A stretch of 26,061 nucleotides of DNA from a virus (UHGV-0036034), one strand, 5' to 3'; positions 10 through 25,469 are shown, counted from the first letter of the stretch. Program-made: numbers and translations. Notes: generated from the letters alone by a model not told the origin.

Positions 10-37
10 AAAACCCTCTGTAGTAACAGAGGGTTTT
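10..37. terminator. Stem-loop downstream of the lysis cassette, possibly a bidirectional intrinsic terminator
   Basis: Inverted repeat AAAACCCTCTG / CAGAGGGTTTT around a 6-nt loop, with an A-run on one side and a T-run on the other, so it is followed by U residues on either strand. Lies about 150 nt past the Rz stop on the minus strand. Confidence 0.45.
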
Positions 38-186
38 GTTCATTCATAGTGCAGGGTCAAATCATTCCCACTCAATTATTTACGACATACATAACCAATT
101 GACTGATAACAACTTTCTGCAACTTGATTTTCACCATACCGTTTTATATACCGTCAACAAAAATCAGTACCATGAAAAATGCCATG

Positions 187-669
187 CTATCTGGTCAGGG
201 TGTCGTACTGTTTTTCGCAGACTCTTCCGGCTTCGGCTGCCCGGTCAGCATACTCTGCCAGTTGTCTATTTCTCTCGAGAGATTTGCTGAACACGTCGGC
301 AAGCAAAACTCCGGTATCTGCGGCTGACGCCCCAGCGCCGACAATGGCGTTATACTGCCTGAGCTGCTCACGGATGGCAACGAGCTGTTGCTGCAACCTG
401 CCAGCGCGAGCGGCAGCATCAAGAGCATCGCTGCGCGCCTGATCGATCCTCTGCTGCGCTTCACGTTCATTGGTCGCTTTCTCCTGTTCGTAGTGCTGAC
501 GAGCCTTTTCTTCTTCGGCTTTGCGGTCTTCTTTCGCCTGCGCATACCCGGCGTCGTACTGACGACTGCCGTGTGCATTCCAGGCTACAACTCCTGACAT
601 GACCAGAACAGCAAGGATCGCCATGATAACCAACTGTTTCCAGTATGCTTTTACGAATGCCCAGATCAT
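187..669 (-). CDS. i-spanin (Rz-like lysis protein)
   Basis: 160-aa ORF with an N-terminal TM helix ([16 protein letters not shown]) followed by a charged Q/R/E/A-rich region. Its ATG overlaps the endolysin stop (ATGA at 666-669). An out-of-frame lipoprotein ORF is embedded, as in lambda Rz/Rz1. Confidence 0.7.
195..428 (-). CDS. o-spanin (Rz1-like outer-membrane lipoprotein), fully embedded in the Rz frame
   Basis: Internal Met of the +1-frame ORF 195..578 gives [12 protein letters not shown]..., with lipobox L-A-G-C. The mature peptide is short and Pro/Ser-rich. Start could equally be the Met three codons later. Confidence 0.65.
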   Translation of the reverse strand: MLLMLPLALAGCSNSSLPSVSSSGSITPLSALGRQPQIPEFCLPTCSANLSREIDNWQSMLTGQPKPEESAKNSTTP

Positions 670-1295
670 ACCGCCAGCACCTTACTGGCAGTGATGTAAC
701 GCGCCCGCCGGTCGTCGATGCCGTTCCTGCCACCATTGATAATCAGAGTTACACGTACAATATCTCCGGAATACTTCATGCAGCCTTTGCTGGAGAAAAA
801 CCACGCCGCGCTACGAGCCGCATATTCGTCCTGCGCCAGCAGTTCAGGATTCTCCAGCAGGTCCACTTTCAGGCCGTTTCCGCAGTCACGATAGTTATTC
901 AAACCGGTAATCTGGATAAGTCCGCGCCCACGGTAATTCCATCCATCGCCTGGGGCATTGTTACCCATGCGTTTGCTGTACACCAGATTTGCGATCGCGC
1001 GCTGGCGCTCGAGTGGCAATGGTGGTTCACCAGCACGGCGACCCAGTGCGTTGGCCTGTCCCTGAGTGAGACGTCCTGCCCGAACAAAGTTAACCAGTCC
1101 TGTGATGCTGTAGTTGAAATTCTCCTGCAACCTGGTGAAGCCACCAGACTCATGCCCGACTTGAGCAATAAACATTGCCTGATCTTCTGCTTTGCTGATG
1201 CCAAACTCTTTCATTGCAGAAGTTATATGCGAGAACCAGCGAGCGGCCAGCGCCTCGCTAATACCAGCAGCTCGCTGGAATTGTTTAATGTCCAT
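666..1295 (-). CDS. Endolysin, glycoside hydrolase family 19 (chitinase-like lysozyme)
   Basis: 209-aa ORF with GH19-type motifs [10 protein letters not shown] and [16 protein letters not shown]. Sits between the membrane proteins and the spanins in a lysis cassette. Confidence 0.85.
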
Positions 1296-2083: not shown

Positions 2084-4486
2084 TCACGCCCATGTCGCAT
2101 CTATGTAGAACGTTGGAGATGTAGTGGTGGACCCTTCAATCGATATTTGTCCTGTTGAAGCATTAATGGTGGCCATTGCCATGCCAAATGAAACGCCATC
2201 ATCAGTGAACGGTACAGGGACATTTTTGGTTACTTTTGGTCTGCACCACCTCGGAAGCGTTAGAACAGTATTGCCATTCGCAAATGAAGTGGCTGCCAGT
2301 TTAATATTAATTGAATTGGCAGTTAAACTTGACGGTGCCTGTACTGTTACGTTTGTTCCAGCCCACCATTGAACAGCTGCTCTTGGCGTGTAATCAACAC
2401 GCGACCACCAGTCGATAATGGCAGAGCAGATAATTTCCGCATACAGACGATACCCTAACTGGCTTTGGTGAATGTCATCACGCAGAAGTGGGTCGTATTG
2501 CGTGTTGAAATACTCTGGATATGGGGCCGGGAGCTGGTGAGTTGTTGTTACACAAATGACGTTATTGCCATATTTCATCATCTGGCGTTTACCAGCCTCG
2601 CGTAACTCCGCAACACCATCGTAATTTGCTGATGGCTGACCAGCCCCTCCAATAAATGACTGGCTATACCACATCCACGGCTCAACCCAAACAGGTACAC
2701 GCCCGAGACTGTTGCAATATAAGACAAACTCATCTATCAGTGCCGCCATATAATCGCCGTTTTGGTTTCCCTGCCCTTCGTTAGTTCCGGCAACCATAAT
2801 AACGATGTAAGCATCACCCGGCCCCTGAGCCTTCAGGAGATCTAACTGTTGCCTCATTGTCTGTCCGGCAACCGCCTTGTTTACAATGCTATATGAACGG
2901 TGTCCGTTCGCTCCATCCATTAATTGCGGAATGTACGAGCTGAACGCAGAAATGAAATCCTCAGCTGTACTATCACCGTGGATAAGGATATTAAGTGGAG
3001 GCTTACAGTGCACACCATTATCAGAGGTATAGCTAGTCACGCCAGTTACTCGTACAATCGTATTGGGAGCACTACTATTAGCTACAAATCCTACCTCGTA
3101 AACGTCACCTACCGCCGAAGTATCATATGGCAGTCTAAAGCTAACACCATTCATTGTAATTACAGCCCAGTTCTTTGACTGTAATGCCACCCCAATAGTA
3201 GCCTTACCGGGAGCGTAGGACAGCAACCCTCCAGGAAGTGAGAATGGAGAACCGTTTACTACCGCGCCTCCAATTGCTTTCTGCCGTACATCCCATTGTG
3301 GAGCACCAGGAGCGCCGTAGAACATCACCCATCCACCTGAGCACCGTAACACAATACCCACTTCATTAAGAGTATTAGACTCAGCACGAATATGTCCTGA
3401 CACATGCTCACCTACTGCAATGGGTACGAACAATCCACGGGTAACAGAATCGGGTAGAGCAAATAGGGCTGCCGTTTCGGAGCTAGCGAATAATGGACCC
3501 TGAGGCGTAAATGAATCCCCGTCCACTGCATAGACAACACAATCAGACCATTCCACTCGCTTCATGCGAATAGGGTTTCGGTTGAGGATGGCCTGCTTAG
3601 CCAGATAATCCACTTCTCCACCGGTTGTTGTGAAATTAAGATGGGAAAACTCAAAAGTGCATTCACCTTCAAACTTCAGCGACTTATAAAGCGAGTAAAG
3701 ATCGCTGTCGAATTTAAGAATGACGTTTTTATCAACGATTACACGGGAGTTTTGCAGATTTCCTGCCTGTGAGGCCGTTCCTGGTATTGTATAAGTTTTC
3801 TTTGTTGCAGAGTGGCAAGGGAAATAAACATAGCCATAGAGATTTACACTCTCCACCCATGCTGCAACAACGTTTGATTGATTGTAAGATGGCATAACGG
3901 TGATTGGTATCGGCTCAAATTTATCCACACCACCGATCTTTTTCCATCCGTCAGGCTGAGCAAGAAGAATCAGCACTTCACTGGCAGAAGCACTCGGAGG
4001 GAGAATGGCTATAGGCTGCCCACTGTCATCCCAGCCAAAAATCATATTCCGGCGACTTGATACCTTTGGCACCAGGTTTACACTGTTTTCAGGAACCCTA
4101 AGCGTATTTCTCTGAAGAGCACCGATGTTGAACATCGCATGCTGAATAAGCATGGTCAGGTAGTCGAATGCATCCTCATGGACCTCTGCAAAAAATTTCC
4201 CCTGATTTCTTAAATCAGTTTCCTGCACTGCTGGAAGGTTACGAGTGATTGATATTGTAATGCCTGGCAAAACAGGAGATGACGTAATAACGCTTCCACC
4301 GGAAGATAAGCCAGCACCTGTAACCATGTAATCTGTCCCCAGGCTCATTGGAGAAACAAGACCGTCAGCGGTTATTGTGCTTACATCAAGATCTGTGTCT
4401 TTAAAAATTCTGAAAGTATATGGGAATGATGTCGTGACTCCATTCCCGAGATACTCATTGTGGCTGATTTCGGTTGAGACTGTCAT
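2084..4486 (-). CDS. Tailspike with podovirus-type N-terminal tail-attachment domain and C-terminal SGNH/GDSL esterase domain
   Basis: 800-aa ORF with GGAG RBS 8 nt before the ATG. The N-terminus (MTVSTEISHNEYLGNGVTTSFPYTFRIF) matches the conserved pattern of T7 gp17-like tail-fibre/tailspike N-termini. The C-terminal part carries the SGNH blocks in order: GDS (NILIHGDSTAEDF, Ser about 506), GTNE (about 567-570), DxxH (DDIH, about 670-673). Confidence 0.85.
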   Translation of the reverse strand: MTVSTEISHNEYLGNGVTTSFPYTFRIFKDTDLDVSTITADGLVSPMSLGTDYMVTGAGLSSGGSVITSSPVLPGITISITRNLPAVQETDLRNQGKFFAEVHEDAFDYLTMLIQHAMFNIGALQRNTLRVPENSVNLVPKVSSRRNMIFGWDDSGQPIAILPPSASASEVLILLAQPDGWKKIGGVDKFEPIPITVMPSYNQSNVVAAWVESVNLYGYVYFPCHSATKKTYTIPGTASQAGNLQNSRVIVDKNVILKFDSDLYSLYKSLKFEGECTFEFSHLNFTTTGGEVDYLAKQAILNRNPIRMKRVEWSDCVVYAVDGDSFTPQGPLFASSETAALFALPDSVTRGLFVPIAVGEHVSGHIRAESNTLNEVGIVLRCSGGWVMFYGAPGAPQWDVRQKAIGGAVVNGSPFSLPGGLLSYAPGKATIGVALQSKNWAVITMNGVSFRLPYDTSAVGDVYEVGFVANSSAPNTIVRVTGVTSYTSDNGVHCKPPLNILIHGDSTAEDFISAFSSYIPQLMDGANGHRSYSIVNKAVAGQTMRQQLDLLKAQGPGDAYIVIMVAGTNEGQGNQNGDYMAALIDEFVLYCNSLGRVPVWVEPWMWYSQSFIGGAGQPSANYDGVAELREAGKRQMMKYGNNVICVTTTHQLPAPYPEYFNTQYDPLLRDDIHQSQLGYRLYAEIICSAIIDWWSRVDYTPRAAVQWWAGTNVTVQAPSSLTANSINIKLAATSFANGNTVLTLPRWCRPKVTKNVPVPFTDDGVSFGMAMATINASTGQISIEGSTTTSPTFYIDATWA

Positions 4487-4563: not shown

Positions 4564-4605
4564 TAGACAACCCATAAATACGAACAGATATTACCTTTCA
4601 GGTGA
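4564..4605 (+). promoter_or_regulatory. Promoter-like element with 15-bp inverted-repeat site (copy A)
   Basis: -35-like TAGACA (4564-4569), 17-bp spacer, -10-like GATATT (4587-4592), then TTACCTTTCAGGTGA (4591-4605). Sits about 90 nt upstream of the 86-aa plus-strand gene. Confidence 0.4.
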
Positions 4606-4623
4606 TTCGCAAAACGTGCTGGA

Positions 4624-4942: not shown

Positions 4943-4985
4943 TTGAAATTACCAAATGGAGTGCTTATATTTACCTTTGCGGTAA
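4943..4985 (+). promoter_or_regulatory. Promoter-like element with 15-bp inverted-repeat site (copy A')
   Basis: -35 TTGAAA (4943-4948), 17-bp spacer, -10 TATATT (4966-4971), then TTACCTTTGCGGTAA (4971-4985). The same inverted repeat could instead fold as a weak terminator hairpin for the 86-aa gene. Confidence 0.4.
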
Positions 4986-5126
4986 ATTTACATCGCACTC
5001 CTCTTGTGCCATAGTAATCGGGCACTGGCAAAATCCAGTGCTGGGATTGGTCTCCCGGATTACTACAGAGTTAGTGCTACACTCATTGACGCCACATTGA
5101 GGTGGCTTATAGATGGAAATTTCACA

Positions 5127-5311: not shown

Positions 5312-5323
5312 GTGACATGTCAC
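5312..5323. repeat. 12-bp perfect palindrome GTGACATGTCAC, copy 1
   Basis: Exact 12-mer. It overlaps the TGA stop of the membrane-protein gene 5320..5616 and abuts the terminator hairpin. Confidence 0.9.
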
Positions 5324-21852: not shown

Positions 21853-21896
21853 TAGACAGTTGACATTTAACGCACGAATTATTACCTTTCAGGTAA
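21853..21896 (+). promoter_or_regulatory. Promoter-like element with 15-bp inverted-repeat site (copy B)
   Basis: TAGACA (21853-21858) and consensus TTGACA (21860-21865), about 17 bp, then TTACCTTTCAGGTAA (21882-21896). Lies in an AT-rich divergent intergenic region. Confidence 0.4.
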
Positions 21897-22218
21897 CCAA
21901 AGAGTTCATTCCGGTTACTAACCTGACTGGCTTGTCGTTAAATTGAACTGGTGGAGTGAGCTTTTATTTTGAGCAGTACGGCGTATGGCACATGCGCCGA
22001 TAGCGGTCTGGATACGTTTAAGGGGCACCCTCCCTTGCTCGGGCAAACGAACCAGGTAGCCGGAATGTGCAAGTCGAGCGGTTTTATTCCGCGCACGGGG
22101 ATTCACCATCCCGGCGATTCGGTGTGACGCCTCGGAAGAGACGAGGGTACAACGATGAGAGCATTTATGGAGCCGCGACAAAGTGTGGTGCCTTAACAGG
22201 CTAAGTGCTCTCAGCGTT

Positions 22219-22295
22219 GTGGCATTAGCTCAGTCGGACAGAGCAACCGCCTTCTAAGCGGTTGGTCGCAGGTTCGAATCCTGCATGCCACGCCA
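22219..22295 (+). tRNA. tRNA-Arg (anticodon UCU), reads AGA
   Basis: 77-nt cloverleaf read directly: acceptor GTGGCAT/ATGCCAC, U8-A9, D stem GCTC/GAGC, anticodon stem ACCGC/GCGGT, loop CTTCTAA (anticodon TCT), 5-nt variable loop, T stem GCAGG/CCTGC with TTCGAAT loop, discriminator G, encoded CCA. Resembles the host argU-type tRNA. Confidence 0.9.
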
Positions 22296-22338
22296 GAATC
22301 ACGCCTAAGGACCGTGATGCCAGAAGTTCCAGGTGCTT

Positions 22339-22380
22339 GGCGGTGATGGTTTCCCTTGAAGGACTATCACCGCCCTTTTT
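22339..22380 (+). terminator. Intrinsic terminator downstream of the tRNA
   Basis: 9-bp stem GGCGGTGAT / ATCACCGCC followed by CTTTTT. Confidence 0.6.
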
Positions 22381-22458
22381 ACAGCAGGACGCCATTGCGA
22401 TGACTTCATGCTGTAAACCCGTACAGCCACGGAAGGCATAACTCATTGCTTCCAGTTC

Positions 22459-22482
22459 GCCCGGTTCGCCGGGCATTTTTTT
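22459..22482 (+). terminator. Hairpin plus T7 tract immediately upstream of the 22494 gene RBS (terminator or attenuator)
   Basis: GCCCGG-TTCG-CCGGGC followed by ATTTTTTT, then the AAGGTGAG RBS and ATG at 22494. Confidence 0.55.
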
Positions 22483-22493
22483 AAGGTGAGATT

Positions 22494-22850
22494 ATGAACG
22501 ACCAGCAAATCGAAAAAGAAATCGTTGAGAAAGGCAAAACCGCTCCGCGAGTTACGCCTCAATATATCGAAAGCATCATTCTTGAAGAGCATTTCTTTAC
22601 TGCTTATGACGGCATTCGTGCTGCCAATATGGGCGTTGGCGATTCATGGACAGCGCATAAATCTACAGACCTCCTGACTTTCTGCGTACTGGTGCTGAAG
22701 AATGGCTTCACCGTCACCGGAGAAAGCGCCTGTGCAAGCCCGGAAAACTTTGATGCAGAAATTGGTCGGAAGATTGCCCGGCAGAATGCTGTAAACAAAA
22801 TCTGGATGCTCGAAGGTTACTTGCTGAAGCAGAAGCTAAGCGAGCAATAA
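22494..22850 (+). CDS. Small conserved phage protein (118 aa); possibly N4 gp49 / Sf6 gp66-like family (recalled from memory, unverified)
   Basis: Strong RBS AAGGTGAG. Plus-strand gene inside the minus-strand structural block. Protein MNDQQIEKEIVEKGKTAPRVTPQYIESIILEEHFFTA...NGFTVTGESACASPENFDAEIGRKIARQNAVNKIW. The family assignment needs a profile search. Confidence 0.7.
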   Translation: MNDQQIEKEIVEKGKTAPRVTPQYIESIILEEHFFTAYDGIRAANMGVGDSWTAHKSTDLLTFCVLVLKNGFTVTGESACASPENFDAEIGRKIARQNAVNKIWMLEGYLLKQKLSEQ

Positions 22851-22854
22851 CACC

Positions 22855-22866
22855 GTGACATGTCAC
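22855..22866. repeat. 12-bp perfect palindrome GTGACATGTCAC, copy 2
   Basis: Exact 12-mer, 4 nt after the TAA of the 22494..22850 gene and 4 nt before the terminator hairpin; about 75 nt past the terminase large subunit stop. Confidence 0.9.
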
Positions 22867-22940: not shown

Positions 22941-24416
22941 TTAAGCATAGGGATCGTAATCTGTGATGGCCTTGCCTTGCTGGTTCTGCTGACCGGGAAT
23001 TCGCAGACGCTTCGACACAGGGAACGCAAACGTCAGCAGTAGCGCATCGCCTTTACCAGGAGAACGCCCAAGTCGCTCTTTGATATCTTCCTTCGGTTCG
23101 ATAACGATTTTACCGTCCACTCGAACTTTGTACTCTGCTGCCGACAGGTCGTCCGCTGTTTCCTGGTCATCAAGCATGCCGCCCAGCCTCAGCCATGTCT
23201 TGCATGAGTTGAACATCTCCCCACGCTTGTTGAGCATCTGCGGGTCAGTAGACGCGCCACCGAACTGAACAAGTTGCCATGTACGACCCCAGCCGTCACC
23301 GATTGACTTCAGACCAGTTCCGTAACCGAAGTCGATGAACACTGCGTCAGCCTGGTACTGGTCTTCAAAGTCAGCGATACGCTTCGCCATAATCAGATCG
23401 TCAGTGGTCTTGTTGCCGGTCCACAGCACCTTACTATGCAGCCCCTGCCGCAGGTATATCACAGCGTCATCAACACCGGAGTATGCCGGGTCAACGCCGA
23501 TTATCACCGGAGCATGTGCAACCTGCGCAGCGGTTACCACCCGTTTCATTGCCTCGTCAGTAAGGCCGGTAGGGATAAACTGCAATTCAGATGCATCCGG
23601 GAATATGCCGCGCACACGGATTTTAACGAAGTCGCTGTCTTCCCCGTAGTCATCAACCCATTTCTGCAACTGCTGTTTGTTAGTGCCTTCCACCGTCCGG
23701 CTGTCAATCTGCGCAGTTTTCCAGCGGTGTTTATATTTGCGGAAACATTCGCGAAAACGCCCGGTGTTACGTGTAGGGTTTCCGAACGCCACCCAGATAA
23801 TCTCAGTGTCTTCGTCCGTAAGCGCACCCTCGGCAACTTCCCACACCAGATCCGCAATGTTCGACGCTTCATCAAACACCACGATGATGCGTTTGCGCTC
23901 GTTGTGTAGTCCGGCGAATGCCTCGGTGTTGTGCTCAGACCAGGGGATTGCGTCAGCTCGCCACCGCTTGTCGTGCCCAGGATCATTGCTGTACATCGCG
24001 GTAGCGGTACAGGTAAACCAGTCTTTCGTGATAGCAAGGTTTGACCACTTGATAATTTCCGGCCAGGTCTTCGTTCGTAGCTGGTTGTCGGTGTTGGCGG
24101 TCACCACGACCTTACAATCCTCGCAAGTGGACATGCCCCAGTTGATCAGCATTGAGATGAATGCGGATTTACCAATACCGTGACCAGAAGCACGTGCCAG
24201 CATAAGCGGCTGATAACGCGTCTCTGGATTCTGCAGGTGATCACGTATCTCTCGGAACGCATCGGCCTGCCACTGACGTGGGCCGGTGGCATGTGCCAGT
24301 TCAGTCCCCTCTTCCCCCCACGGGAACGCATAGAGGGCATAGCCAAGCGGATCGTGAGTGAACCCTGCAATATCCTCGATTAACTGCTCTTCAGGAGATA
24401 ACGCTGTATCTGTCAC
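22941..24416 (-). CDS. Terminase large subunit
   Basis: 491-aa ORF with Walker A-like P-loop (ARASGHGIGKS) and Walker B-like IIVVFDEAS in the N-terminal ATPase half, and acidic nuclease-type residues in the C-terminal half. ATGA overlap with the small subunit. Confidence 0.85.
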   Translation of the reverse strand: MTDTALSPEEQLIEDIAGFTHDPLGYALYAFPWGEEGTELAHATGPRQWQADAFREIRDHLQNPETRYQPLMLARASGHGIGKSAFISMLINWGMSTCEDCKVVVTANTDNQLRTKTWPEIIKWSNLAITKDWFTCTATAMYSNDPGHDKRWRADAIPWSEHNTEAFAGLHNERKRIIVVFDEASNIADLVWEVAEGALTDEDTEIIWVAFGNPTRNTGRFRECFRKYKHRWKTAQIDSRTVEGTNKQQLQKWVDDYGEDSDFVKIRVRGIFPDASELQFIPTGLTDEAMKRVVTAAQVAHAPVIIGVDPAYSGVDDAVIYLRQGLHSKVLWTGNKTTDDLIMAKRIADFEDQYQADAVFIDFGYGTGLKSIGDGWGRTWQLVQFGGASTDPQMLNKRGEMFNSCKTWLRLGGMLDDQETADDLSAAEYKVRVDGKIVIEPKEDIKERLGRSPGKGDALLLTFAFPVSKRLRIPGQQNQQGKAITDYDPYA

Positions 24417-25009
24417 TGATTACTATCCTGACGTTCTTTGAGTCGCTTCCTGGCTGCTGCTATGCGATCAGCAATTGTCACATTCACATTAACATCCAGA
24501 CGTTCTTTGAACGCGTTGACATCAACATGCTTACCAATCAGCTCAAGGTTCTTCACCTTGTCAGGCCATTTAATTTTTTTGAGGATTGTCTCTATCGAAT
24601 CCTCGTTCATGTTCATGATGGTCGATGACAGATCAAAGCCACTAAGCGTAGTGCGCCAGATTTTCGGCCACTCGCGGATTGGCTTAAGGCTCCCATCGTC
24701 GTTGAGGATGTCGATCACGTCCATCTGGTCGATCTCCACCAGGCGCATGAGAACGTAATCAGCACTGACGCGCATTCGTTTGTTGCGCTCCTCCATCAAC
24801 TCGGCAATCCGTTTTTGAATGCGTTCATCGCGCATCATGACACTGGCTTTAACTGCCGCTGTATTTGGGGAGAATCCTGCGTTAATCGCTGCCTGAGTCT
24901 GGTTTTCAGGCGTTTTGATGTATGACTGGCAATAAGCCTCCTGCATTGCTGTGAGCGGCTTAAATTGCGTTGATTTGCGTTTATAGGTTTTAGGTTCAGC
25001 AGGCATCAT
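24413..25009 (-). CDS. Terminase small subunit
   Basis: Start taken as ATG 25009 or 25006 (MMPAEPKTYKRK...) with GGTGG upstream, rather than the track's TTG at 25087, because a terminator hairpin and tandem repeats lie in between. Helix-rich basic protein immediately upstream of and overlapping the large subunit. Confidence 0.7.
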   Translation of the reverse strand: MMPAEPKTYKRKSTQFKPLTAMQEAYCQSYIKTPENQTQAAINAGFSPNTAAVKASVMMRDERIQKRIAELMEERNKRMRVSADYVLMRLVEIDQMDVIDILNDDGSLKPIREWPKIWRTTLSGFDLSSTIMNMNEDSIETILKKIKWPDKVKNLELIGKHVDVNAFKERLDVNVNVTIADRIAAARKRLKERQDSNQ

Positions 25010-25016
25010 AACCACC

Positions 25017-25048
25017 GTGGTAATAGTTACCGTTGTGGTAATAGTACC
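25017..25048. repeat. Tandem direct repeat GTGGTAATAGTTACC / GTGGTAATAGTACC in the terminase leader
   Basis: Two copies with an 18-bp period (25017-25031 and 25035-25048). Each contains GGTAA..TTACC half-sites in the opposite arrangement to the 15-bp motif. Confidence 0.6.
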
Positions 25049-25050
25049 AT

Positions 25051-25078
25051 GCAAAATAAAGCCGCCATAGTTGGCGGC
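25051..25078 (-). terminator. Intrinsic terminator separating the upstream small genes from the terminase/structural operon
   Basis: GCCGCC-ATAGTT-GGCGGC hairpin (25061-25078), followed on the minus strand by TTTATTTT. Confidence 0.55.
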
Positions 25079-25119
25079 AGTATTCAAAGTCCATCAAATT
25101 CATCATGCATAATCTACTC

Positions 25120-25131
25120 GTGACATGTCAC
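25120..25131. repeat. 12-bp perfect palindrome GTGACATGTCAC, copy 3
   Basis: Exact 12-mer overlapping the TGA stop of gene 25128..25469, about 30 nt before the terminator hairpin upstream of the terminase small subunit. Confidence 0.9.
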
Positions 25132-25469
25132 ACTATTAATTTCGTTTCATGCCAGCCTTTGGTCACCCAGCATTGCGAGTCACCACTACACGGGCATGAA
25201 TTCACAGGAACTCTCTCGCCGCACTTACCGCAACGTTTTCTGCTGATCGATTTTATACGCCCGCGCACGCGTGCATCATCCTGGCGGATCAGTAACGCTA
25301 TATACTCACCAAATTCGTAAGGCGCACGCCCGGGGCGACGCGTGGCGCAGTTCCGCTCCAGCATTTCAATTTCCTGAGCATCAAGCACAATCTCCAGCTT
25401 ACGTACACCGGATGCAGCTTGTCTGGCTCTCTGAGCGGCTTTGCGCTCTGCTGCTGATTTAGCCATCAA
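25128..25469 (-). CDS. Small basic protein with C-terminal Cys cluster (113 aa), possible DNA-binding or zinc-ribbon protein
   Basis: Basic N-terminal helix region (AERKAAQRARQAASGVRKLEIVLDAQEIEMLE) and C-terminal CGKCGERVPVNSCPCSG. Start overlaps the upstream gene by 11 nt. Confidence 0.55.
   Translation of the reverse strand: MMAKSAAERKAAQRARQAASGVRKLEIVLDAQEIEMLERNCATRRPGRAPYEFGEYIALLIRQDDARVRGRIKSISRKRCGKCGERVPVNSCPCSGDSQCWVTKGWHETKLIV

Follow-up and report, generated by a model that had tools for sequence, protein, structure and literature searches.

What separates the packaging genes from the early genes that precede them, and what two tandem repeats running up to the gene for the terminase small subunit (terS) do there, are the questions raised by positions 25010–25131 of a 26,061-nucleotide stretch of viral DNA (UHGV-0036034; the whole stretch is referred to here as the window). 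A palindrome, an intrinsic terminator and the repeats had been noticed in a reading made from the sequence alone (the sequence-only reading), and all three are present where it had placed them. With a probability of roughly 0.7, the early-right operon here meets a separately controlled packaging operon (terS–terL), and at this junction a terminator is followed by an extended −10 promoter lying under two operators, O1 and O2, of the prophage repressor Rep. The analysis computed which sequence elements are present, how they are conserved and where the motif lies across the genomes; we infer Rep as the binder, the use of the −10 element and the mechanism of repression.

The window is 97–99% identical to phiV10-type phages in BLAST comparisons with phage records (E. 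coli O157 typing phages 9 and 10, PAS61, TL-2011b, ZX5 and phiV10), with more distant matches to epsilon15, SPN1S/SPC32H, PAT1, Tyrion and Klebsiella phages. It is assigned by its sequence to the late region of a Uetakevirus (epsilon15/phiV10-like) prophage, with the late genes on the minus strand. The genes that bear on the question are as follows.

25128..25466, minus strand: 112-aa gene (epsilon15 gp49/phiV10 p55/N15 gp46 family), phrog_536 'transcriptional regulator'
24413..25006, minus strand: terS, 197 aa, Terminase_2 family (PF03592), start ATG 25006 (MPAEPK)
22941..24416: terL, after terS
22219–22295, plus strand: tRNA-Arg (anticodon TCT), in the terL–portal gap, on the strand opposite to the late genes

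The portal and structural genes come after terL, and a DUF551 gene, a small ORF and the 112-aa ORF lie upstream of terS; the 112-aa gene is the last of the upstream early-right operon. That the packaging operon begins here, as the sequence-only reading had it, agrees with the PF03592 assignment of terS and with the position of terL after it. TerS resembles SF6 G1P (3ZQP, E = 6.5e-7), and a PDB sequence search with TerL gave no match. Several listed ORFs over the tRNA-Arg gene (e.g., 22225..22476) are artefacts of translating the tRNA region.

In order of transcription, the elements between the two operons are these.

25120..25131: palindrome copy 1, GTGACATGTCAC, overlapping the TGA stop (25130–25128) of the 112-aa gene
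25079..25119, minus strand: variable spacer of 41 nt between palindrome copy 1 and the terminator
25053..25078, minus strand: intrinsic terminator, stem-loop GCCGCCA-ACTA-TGGCGGC (25078–25061), then TTTATTTT (25060–25053)
25041..25049, minus strand: predicted extended −10, TGgTACTAT (TG, 25049–25048; hexamer TACTAT, 25046–25041)
25026..25042, minus strand: operator O1, ATTACCACAACGGTAAC (ATTACC-ACAAC-GGTAAC; 11/12 matches to ATTACC-N5-GGTAAT)
25008..25024, minus strand: operator O2, ATTACCACGGTGGTTAT (ATTACC-ACGGT-GGTTAT; 11/12 matches)
25012..25016, minus strand: Shine-Dalgarno sequence GGTGG, 5 nt upstream of ATG 25006 and only 2 nt from ATG 25009

The 11-mer GTGGTAATAGT occurs exactly twice, 18 bp apart, on the plus strand (25017–25027 and 25035–25045), and the copies reach 15 and 14 nt, in agreement with the tandem 14/15-bp repeats of 18-bp period described in the sequence-only reading. 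The term 'direct repeats' is literally right, yet the repetition is a by-product of neighbouring inverted repeats and a −10 element that resembles a half-site: the 15-bp 'direct repeat' consists of the right half of one palindrome, the intervening base and the left half of the next. O1 and O2 are 17-bp inverted repeats with one base between them, 18 bp apart from centre to centre. The last bases of the −10 hexamer lie within O1, as does the predicted start site, and O2 overlaps the Shine-Dalgarno sequence and the first ATG.

O1 aligns base for base with a 'protein_bind: repressor' feature of epsilon15 (12..27), which stands directly before terS and just past a hairpin that closes the record and carries a terminator annotation. 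The epsilon15 GenBank record (AY150271.2) holds seven such sites, from which the consensus ATTACC-N5-GGTAAT was extracted and which may themselves be bioinformatic predictions. O2 varies among lineages, being good in phiV10, BUCT554 and Erwinia types and degenerate in the Klebsiella type. Because of this degeneracy, and because the O1–O2 distance varies by 0–2 nt among relatives, O2 is regarded as an auxiliary, lineage-dependent site; its conservation is confounded with that of the Shine-Dalgarno sequence. A literature search on the palindrome and operator strings returned nothing relevant, and the vB_EcoP_ZX5 paper defines no operators.

The operator motif is far from confined to the terS region. 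With up to two mismatches, ATTACC-N5-GGTAAT is found six times in the window against 0.69 expected, a number reached in 0 of 100 shuffles; with up to one mismatch, phiV10 has 9 copies (0.07 expected) and epsilon15 has 11 (0.13 expected). Complete genomes carry 9–12 good copies, placed around rep and where operons begin. In phiV10, epsilon15, Tyrion and SPC32H, nearly all sites with at most one mismatch are intergenic; they cluster on either side of rep (OL and OR) and head the terS, portal, tailspike/antirepressor, lysis and replication units. OL/OR clusters are also present in those of the 10 prophage loci (described below) that reach far enough upstream; the window itself has no immunity region. 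Elsewhere in the window, the following sites were found.

21881..21897: operator-like site with one mismatch before the portal operon; its epsilon15 orthologue is the repressor site 2931..2947
4590..4606: operator-like site with one mismatch, where the tailspike gene and the antirepressor region diverge
4970–4986: weaker operator-like site in the same tailspike/antirepressor divergent region

The sites in the portal and tailspike/antirepressor regions match sites annotated in epsilon15.

Certain spacings recur among the operators: paired sites at OR abut (17 bp), and those at PL and the replication promoter are 62 bp apart. The 62-bp pairs, measured from start to start, lie at 31952/32014 and 35069/35131 in phiV10 and at 32554/32616 and 35906/35968 in epsilon15, and likewise in Tyrion, SPC32H and further related loci; one site of each pair is over the −10 and the other is upstream of the −35. 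Their exactness suggests a fixed loop or wrap geometry of a tetrameric repressor. When the sequence was inspected by eye for a third operator 62 bp upstream of O1, in the style of PL, none was seen.

Since the window has no rep gene, its cognate repressor is deduced from the relatives that are 97–99% identical to it. The phiV10 Rep is homologous to the crystallised Rep of SPC32H (5D50, E = 4e-42), which a secondary source reports to bind palindromic sites as a tetramer (PMC9638917). A single operator consensus is shared by all 20 relatives compared. Most likely, O1 and O2 would be bound by the tetrameric CI-type Rep of the prophage (SPC32H Rep/epsilon15 gp38 family), and a Cro-like protein may use the same operator sites.

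The promoter under these operators was approached by aligning the region upstream of terS from 10 phages and 10 prophage loci, with TerS identities down to 68% and at least 11 genera represented; the prophage loci are from Pseudocitrobacter, Citrobacter, Erwinia, Klebsiella, Scandinavium, Superficieibacter, Kluyvera, Pseudescherichia and Buttiauxella. The pattern TG-n-TA-n-TAT is invariant in 20/20 relatives, including five that have a non-homologous upstream gene and lack the terminator. The O1 half-sites are essentially invariant as well, and the 5-bp spacer between them changes freely; constrained half-sites around a free spacer, seen in the 20 relatives and in 67 near-identical loci, are the signature of a dimer-type site. 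In the latter set, taken from IMG/VR, 8 of 14 predicted non-contact positions are variable vs 1 of 32 contact positions (Fisher p = 9e-5).

On this conservation, TG-n-TA-n-TAT is predicted to be an extended −10 promoter element, not a third half-site. A third upstream half-site, GGTACT, was considered and rejected, as the conserved positions in relatives fit TG-n-TA-n-TAT better than GGTAAT. The predicted start site is near 25034–25036, within O1. The 'AT' of ATTACC also forms the end of the −10 hexamer, and this register recurs in phiV10/epsilon15 at PL and at the p45 promoter, where the −35 boxes are good. At terS, the −35 is not recognisable (TATGGC at 17-bp spacing, 1/6 matches), and a consensus promoter scan called no promoter at this −10; the terS promoter may need an activator, or terS may be transcribed by read-through alone. 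Upstream of the terminator, the scan found GTGACA-18 nt-CATGAT (9/12 matches), the −10 part of which is not conserved.

The intrinsic terminator upstream of the repeats, proposed in the sequence-only reading, is supported by three observations. A terminator scan gives a stem of 7 bp with six GC pairs and a loop of 4 nt; the hairpin forms in the minimum-free-energy fold of the RNA; and it is conserved in relatives, the orthologous hairpin being annotated as a rho-independent terminator in epsilon15. It is accordingly placed in the sequence as the predicted end of the early-right operon (25053..25078).

In Klebsiella, Citrobacter, Kluyvera, Enterobacter, Erwinia and Pseudocitrobacter relatives, the position of the 41-nt spacer is occupied by a small gene behind a perfect LexA box. 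From a weak alignment of the C-terminal ends (...DEFDGL* in the window vs ...DDEFKLI*), the spacer is probably a remnant of such a LexA-box-controlled gene. Either of two small genes is inserted directly after palindrome copy 1 in relatives, one for a product of 85 aa and the other for a 109-aa product with a UmuD-like annotation, and both follow a consensus LexA box, TACTGT-N8-ACAGTA (Klebsiella, Enterobacter, Citrobacter, Erwinia, Kluyvera); this position is a hotspot of SOS-controlled accessory genes. Among close relatives in IMG/VR, the distance from the palindrome to the promoter is 267–268 nt, not 81–82 nt, in 24 of 66 measurable loci, in which an insertion of roughly 186 bp separates the palindrome from the terS promoter.

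The start codon of terS bears on how the repeats are read, since a TTG-start extension (TTG 25087) would carry translation through them. The sequence-only reading had doubted this extension, and three findings agree: the frame upstream of MPAEPK has stop codons in Klebsiella and Enterobacter/BUCT554 relatives, GGTGG lies 5 nt from ATG 25006, and two close relatives read ATT-ATG, so that the first ATG is lost and the second is kept. The extension, which is not conserved, is therefore rejected as an artefact of translating the operators, and ATG 25006 is assigned from these comparisons as the start of terS. In phage Tyrion, the corresponding position carries a ribosome-binding-site annotation. 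Database records differ, with terS starting at the upstream TTG (675 nt) in phiV10 (DQ126339.2, CDS 41..715) and VB_ST_E15, and at the ATG (594–597 nt) in epsilon15, TL-2011b, Tyrion and SPC32H. The annotated TTG start, as in the phiV10 record, should give way to ATG 25006.

The palindrome at the upstream edge of the region has a distribution of its own, and neither its three copies nor its link to a gene is visible when this region is viewed by itself. The sequence-only reading had described it as overlapping the preceding stop codon, and on the minus strand it indeed occupies 25131–25120, over the TGA at 25130–25128. The 12-mer GTGACATGTCAC (as RNA, GUGACAUGUCAC) is present three times in the 26-kb window, each time in the order stop codon, palindrome, 1–41 nt, intrinsic terminator. 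In addition to copy 1, the copies are as follows.

22855..22866: palindrome copy 2, 4 nt past the stop of a plus-strand gp66-like ORF (22494..22850); 4 nt further on is the terminator AGCCAGCC-tatga-GCTGGCT-ttgtttt, convergent with the end of terL
5312..5323: palindrome copy 3, where the long minus-strand structural operon finishes; 1 nt further on is the terminator GGCCGC-tttc-GCGGCC-ttgttttt

One site closes the early-right operon, another lies in the convergent gap that follows terL, and the third is where the structural operon ends; epsilon15, phiV10, Tyrion and SPC32H have the palindrome in these same positions. Copy 1 is kept in 7/10 aligned phages and, with a variable central dinucleotide, in 10/10 prophage loci, even those in which a gene has been inserted behind it.

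In the general form GTGAC-NN-GTCAC, the motif occurs exactly three times each in epsilon15, SPC32H, Tyrion, ZF40, N15 and Vibrio phage K253, against approximately 0.04 expected from composition, and a homologue of the 112-aa gene is present in all six genomes. Lineages differ in the central dinucleotide (AT, TG/CA or CG/GC). The positions are 5125, 7622 and 14944 in ZF40; 28550, 33237 and 39269 in N15; and 21342, 33227 and 35942 in K253. In the myophage ZF40, a copy is found 2 nt after the stop of the 112-aa homologue (67% protein identity), and in N15 the stop of the homologue gp46 (35% identity) is embedded in G-TGA-CTGGTCAC; among N15-type loci, the motif is at the stop codon in 49/49 although the flanking codons vary. 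K253, a Vibrio siphophage (homologue 31% identity), has no copy at the stop of the regulator gene, the nearest being approximately 226 nt downstream of the gene; two of its copies precede start codons, among them that of terS, by 19 nt. Taken together, sites 13–19 nt before start codons, including the terS start, are present in N15 and K253. An unbiased count of 5-N2-5 palindromes occurring at least three times per genome returns GTGAC in every genome examined. In N15, the same count also recovers the SopB centromere sites, which therefore serve as a positive control.

Several other identities were considered for the palindrome. A CRP site and a LexA box were rejected on spacing and sequence, against the generally known consensus sites. 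The N15 SopB centromere sites IR1–4 have the sequence GTGCGACC-NN-GGTCGCAC (PMC7205306), which differs from that of the palindrome, and this identity was also rejected. A role as a promoter −35 would be possible for copy 1 only and misfits copies 2 and 3; in a check for a lambda Q-type late module, which consists of a promoter, a short transcript and a terminator behind the antiterminator gene, copies 2 and 3 were found to abut terminators, leaving no room for a promoter. The suggestion that the start of the phiV10 record represents a physical DNA end inside the palindrome was rejected, since the record starts after the stop codon of the last gene.

The motif is at, or within 2 nt of, the stop of the phrog_536 gene in Uetakevirus, ZF40 and 49/49 N15-type loci, and the gene and three sites are conserved together in podo-, myo- and siphophages of Enterobacteriaceae and Vibrio. 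For the 112-aa protein, a strand-helix-helix (ribbon-helix-helix-like) arrangement is predicted in the N-terminal part, and a CxxC...CPC cluster of cysteines is conserved. Searches of Pfam, NCBIfam and PDB gave no match for it, and its AlphaFold model is of low confidence (pLDDT 62), with no structural match in Foldseek. From the shared distribution, it is proposed, as somewhat the better bet, that the palindrome is the cognate site of the adjacent 112-aa protein. A more far-reaching proposal is tentative: GTGAC-NN-GTCAC, as the cognate site of phrog_536 proteins, might form a previously undescribed protein-controlled switch acting on the RNA signal just downstream (terminator or ribosome-binding site) and gating late/packaging expression. 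In such a switch the cysteine cluster could conceivably be of a zinc-binding type, a part of the proposal that is speculative to the same degree. The association of palindrome and regulator is the sole unexplained, and possibly new, item in the region.

In the reading preferred here, transcription from the early genes would end at the terminator (25078–25053), and the weak, −35-less extended −10 promoter immediately downstream (25049–25041) would drive terS–terL. With Rep bound to O1/O2 in the lysogen, RNA polymerase would be kept from the terS promoter; the same would apply to OL/OR and to the portal, tailspike, lysis and replication operons, which carry the motif at their heads. Removal of Rep by the antirepressor would then release the packaging operon along with the other operons. 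The palindrome would be a separate element, placed in Uetakevirus just before terminators.

The missing −35 is compatible with other explanations of the same elements. If there were no promoter at all, terS would be served by antiterminated read-through from the early-right operon, Rep at O1/O2 would act only as a roadblock in the manner of L5 stoperators, and the palindrome and 112-aa protein would control the terminator. Such an arrangement would account for a conserved palindrome before each of the three terminators and for its evolutionary tie to a regulator gene just before a terminator. It is nevertheless unlikely: TG-n-TA-n-TAT is invariant even in relatives that have other upstream DNA and no terminator, read-through at copies 2 and 3, which are at convergent gene ends, would yield antisense RNA, and the annotations of the related phage records examined include no N- or Q-like antiterminator. 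Promoters without a −35 are also typical of activator dependence, and a gene for a small putative DNA-binding protein lies directly upstream, where late regulators often sit; the repeats might on that account be a late-gene activator site, as the sequence-only reading had favoured, at which, for example, the 112-aa regulator switches on the late promoter. Against this, the sites match the repressor-operator consensus and have a repressor-like position, over or downstream of the −10, the start region and the ribosome-binding site, instead of at −40 to −60. The motif also forms the OL/OR clusters around rep and heads early operons, and the motif that tracks the 112-aa gene is GTGAC-NN-GTCAC, not ATTACC-N5-GGTAAT. 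An activator site is thus very unlikely.

The sequence-only reading had also allowed that the repeats mark the packaging recognition region, and membership of TerS in the Terminase_2 family and its resemblance to SF6 G1P would suit a pac site, all or part of which is formed by the repeats and bound by TerS. In such phages (SPP1, P22, P1), pac is in or next to terS. The motif is, however, not unique, with six copies in the window and 9–12 good copies per complete genome, and the constraint is confined to the half-sites of a dimer-type palindrome. GenBank records that start near terS reflect conventions, not mapped ends. Because the same motif stands at nine or more other operon starts per genome, a packaging signal is likewise very unlikely. 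The sequence-only interpretation is supported for the start of the packaging operon, the terminator and the spurious TTG extension, and poorly supported for the activator site and the pac signal.

The result on Rep control of terS is mainly corrective, in that the repeats are best read as repressor operators over a promoter and not as an activator or pac site. As the orthologue of this control region is already annotated in epsilon15, the part comprising repeats, terminator and start codon is ordinary. It supports a simple layout of the epsilon15 type, in which one tetrameric repressor would act directly on the promoters of most operons, including that for packaging. With one repressor on most promoters, induction by the antirepressor can release early and late functions together, and this layout is relevant to the engineering of phiV10/SPC32H-type reporter phages. 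The palindrome is the part that could matter more than the repeats: a three-copy motif co-inherited with a small regulator in unrelated phages is a directly testable handle on a protein family without known function.

Among known systems, the closest are the epsilon15 operators and the Rep/Ant switch of SPC32H (5D50, 5D4Z), with which the window shares the consensus, the orthologous position before terS, the upstream terminator and, as judged from complete relatives, the distribution over the genome. In contrast to epsilon15, the window has a well-formed O2 (one mismatch vs two in epsilon15), and binding here is predicted from sequence. The 18-bp direct repeat is visible because the well-formed O2 makes a clean double operator that reaches the start codon.

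Phage P1 (C1) and mycobacteriophage L5 (gp71) each use one repressor at many dispersed sites, silencing lytic or late units directly and not just by way of a cascade. The operators described here resemble the P1 C1 operators and L5 stoperators in that many sites across the genome would serve one prophage repressor. They differ in being symmetric 17-bp palindromes over promoters, whereas P1 operators are asymmetric and L5 stoperators are asymmetric, orientation-dependent blocks to elongation. As at lambda OR/OL, where CI binds cooperatively, a promoter is overlapped by neighbouring 17-bp palindromes whose repressor oligomerises; unlike OR/OL, O1 and O2 would control the packaging operon and not the immunity region. 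Rep is described as a preformed tetramer with a fold unlike that of lambda CI, inactivated by an antirepressor and not by RecA-stimulated cleavage (PMC9638917).

As for the remaining two systems, the comparison concerns packaging and partition sites. In SPP1/SF6, pacL is in the promoter region of gene 1. Like the pacL–pacC–pacR arrangement, the repeats are upstream of a Terminase_2-family terS and overlap its promoter; unlike pac, they are not unique to the terS region and match the immunity operators. GTGAC-NN-GTCAC, for its part, resembles the SopB sites of N15 in being a short palindrome with a few scattered copies in each genome. It differs from them in sequence, in that Uetakeviruses integrate and are without a Sop system, and in that the motif tracks phrog_536, not sopB.
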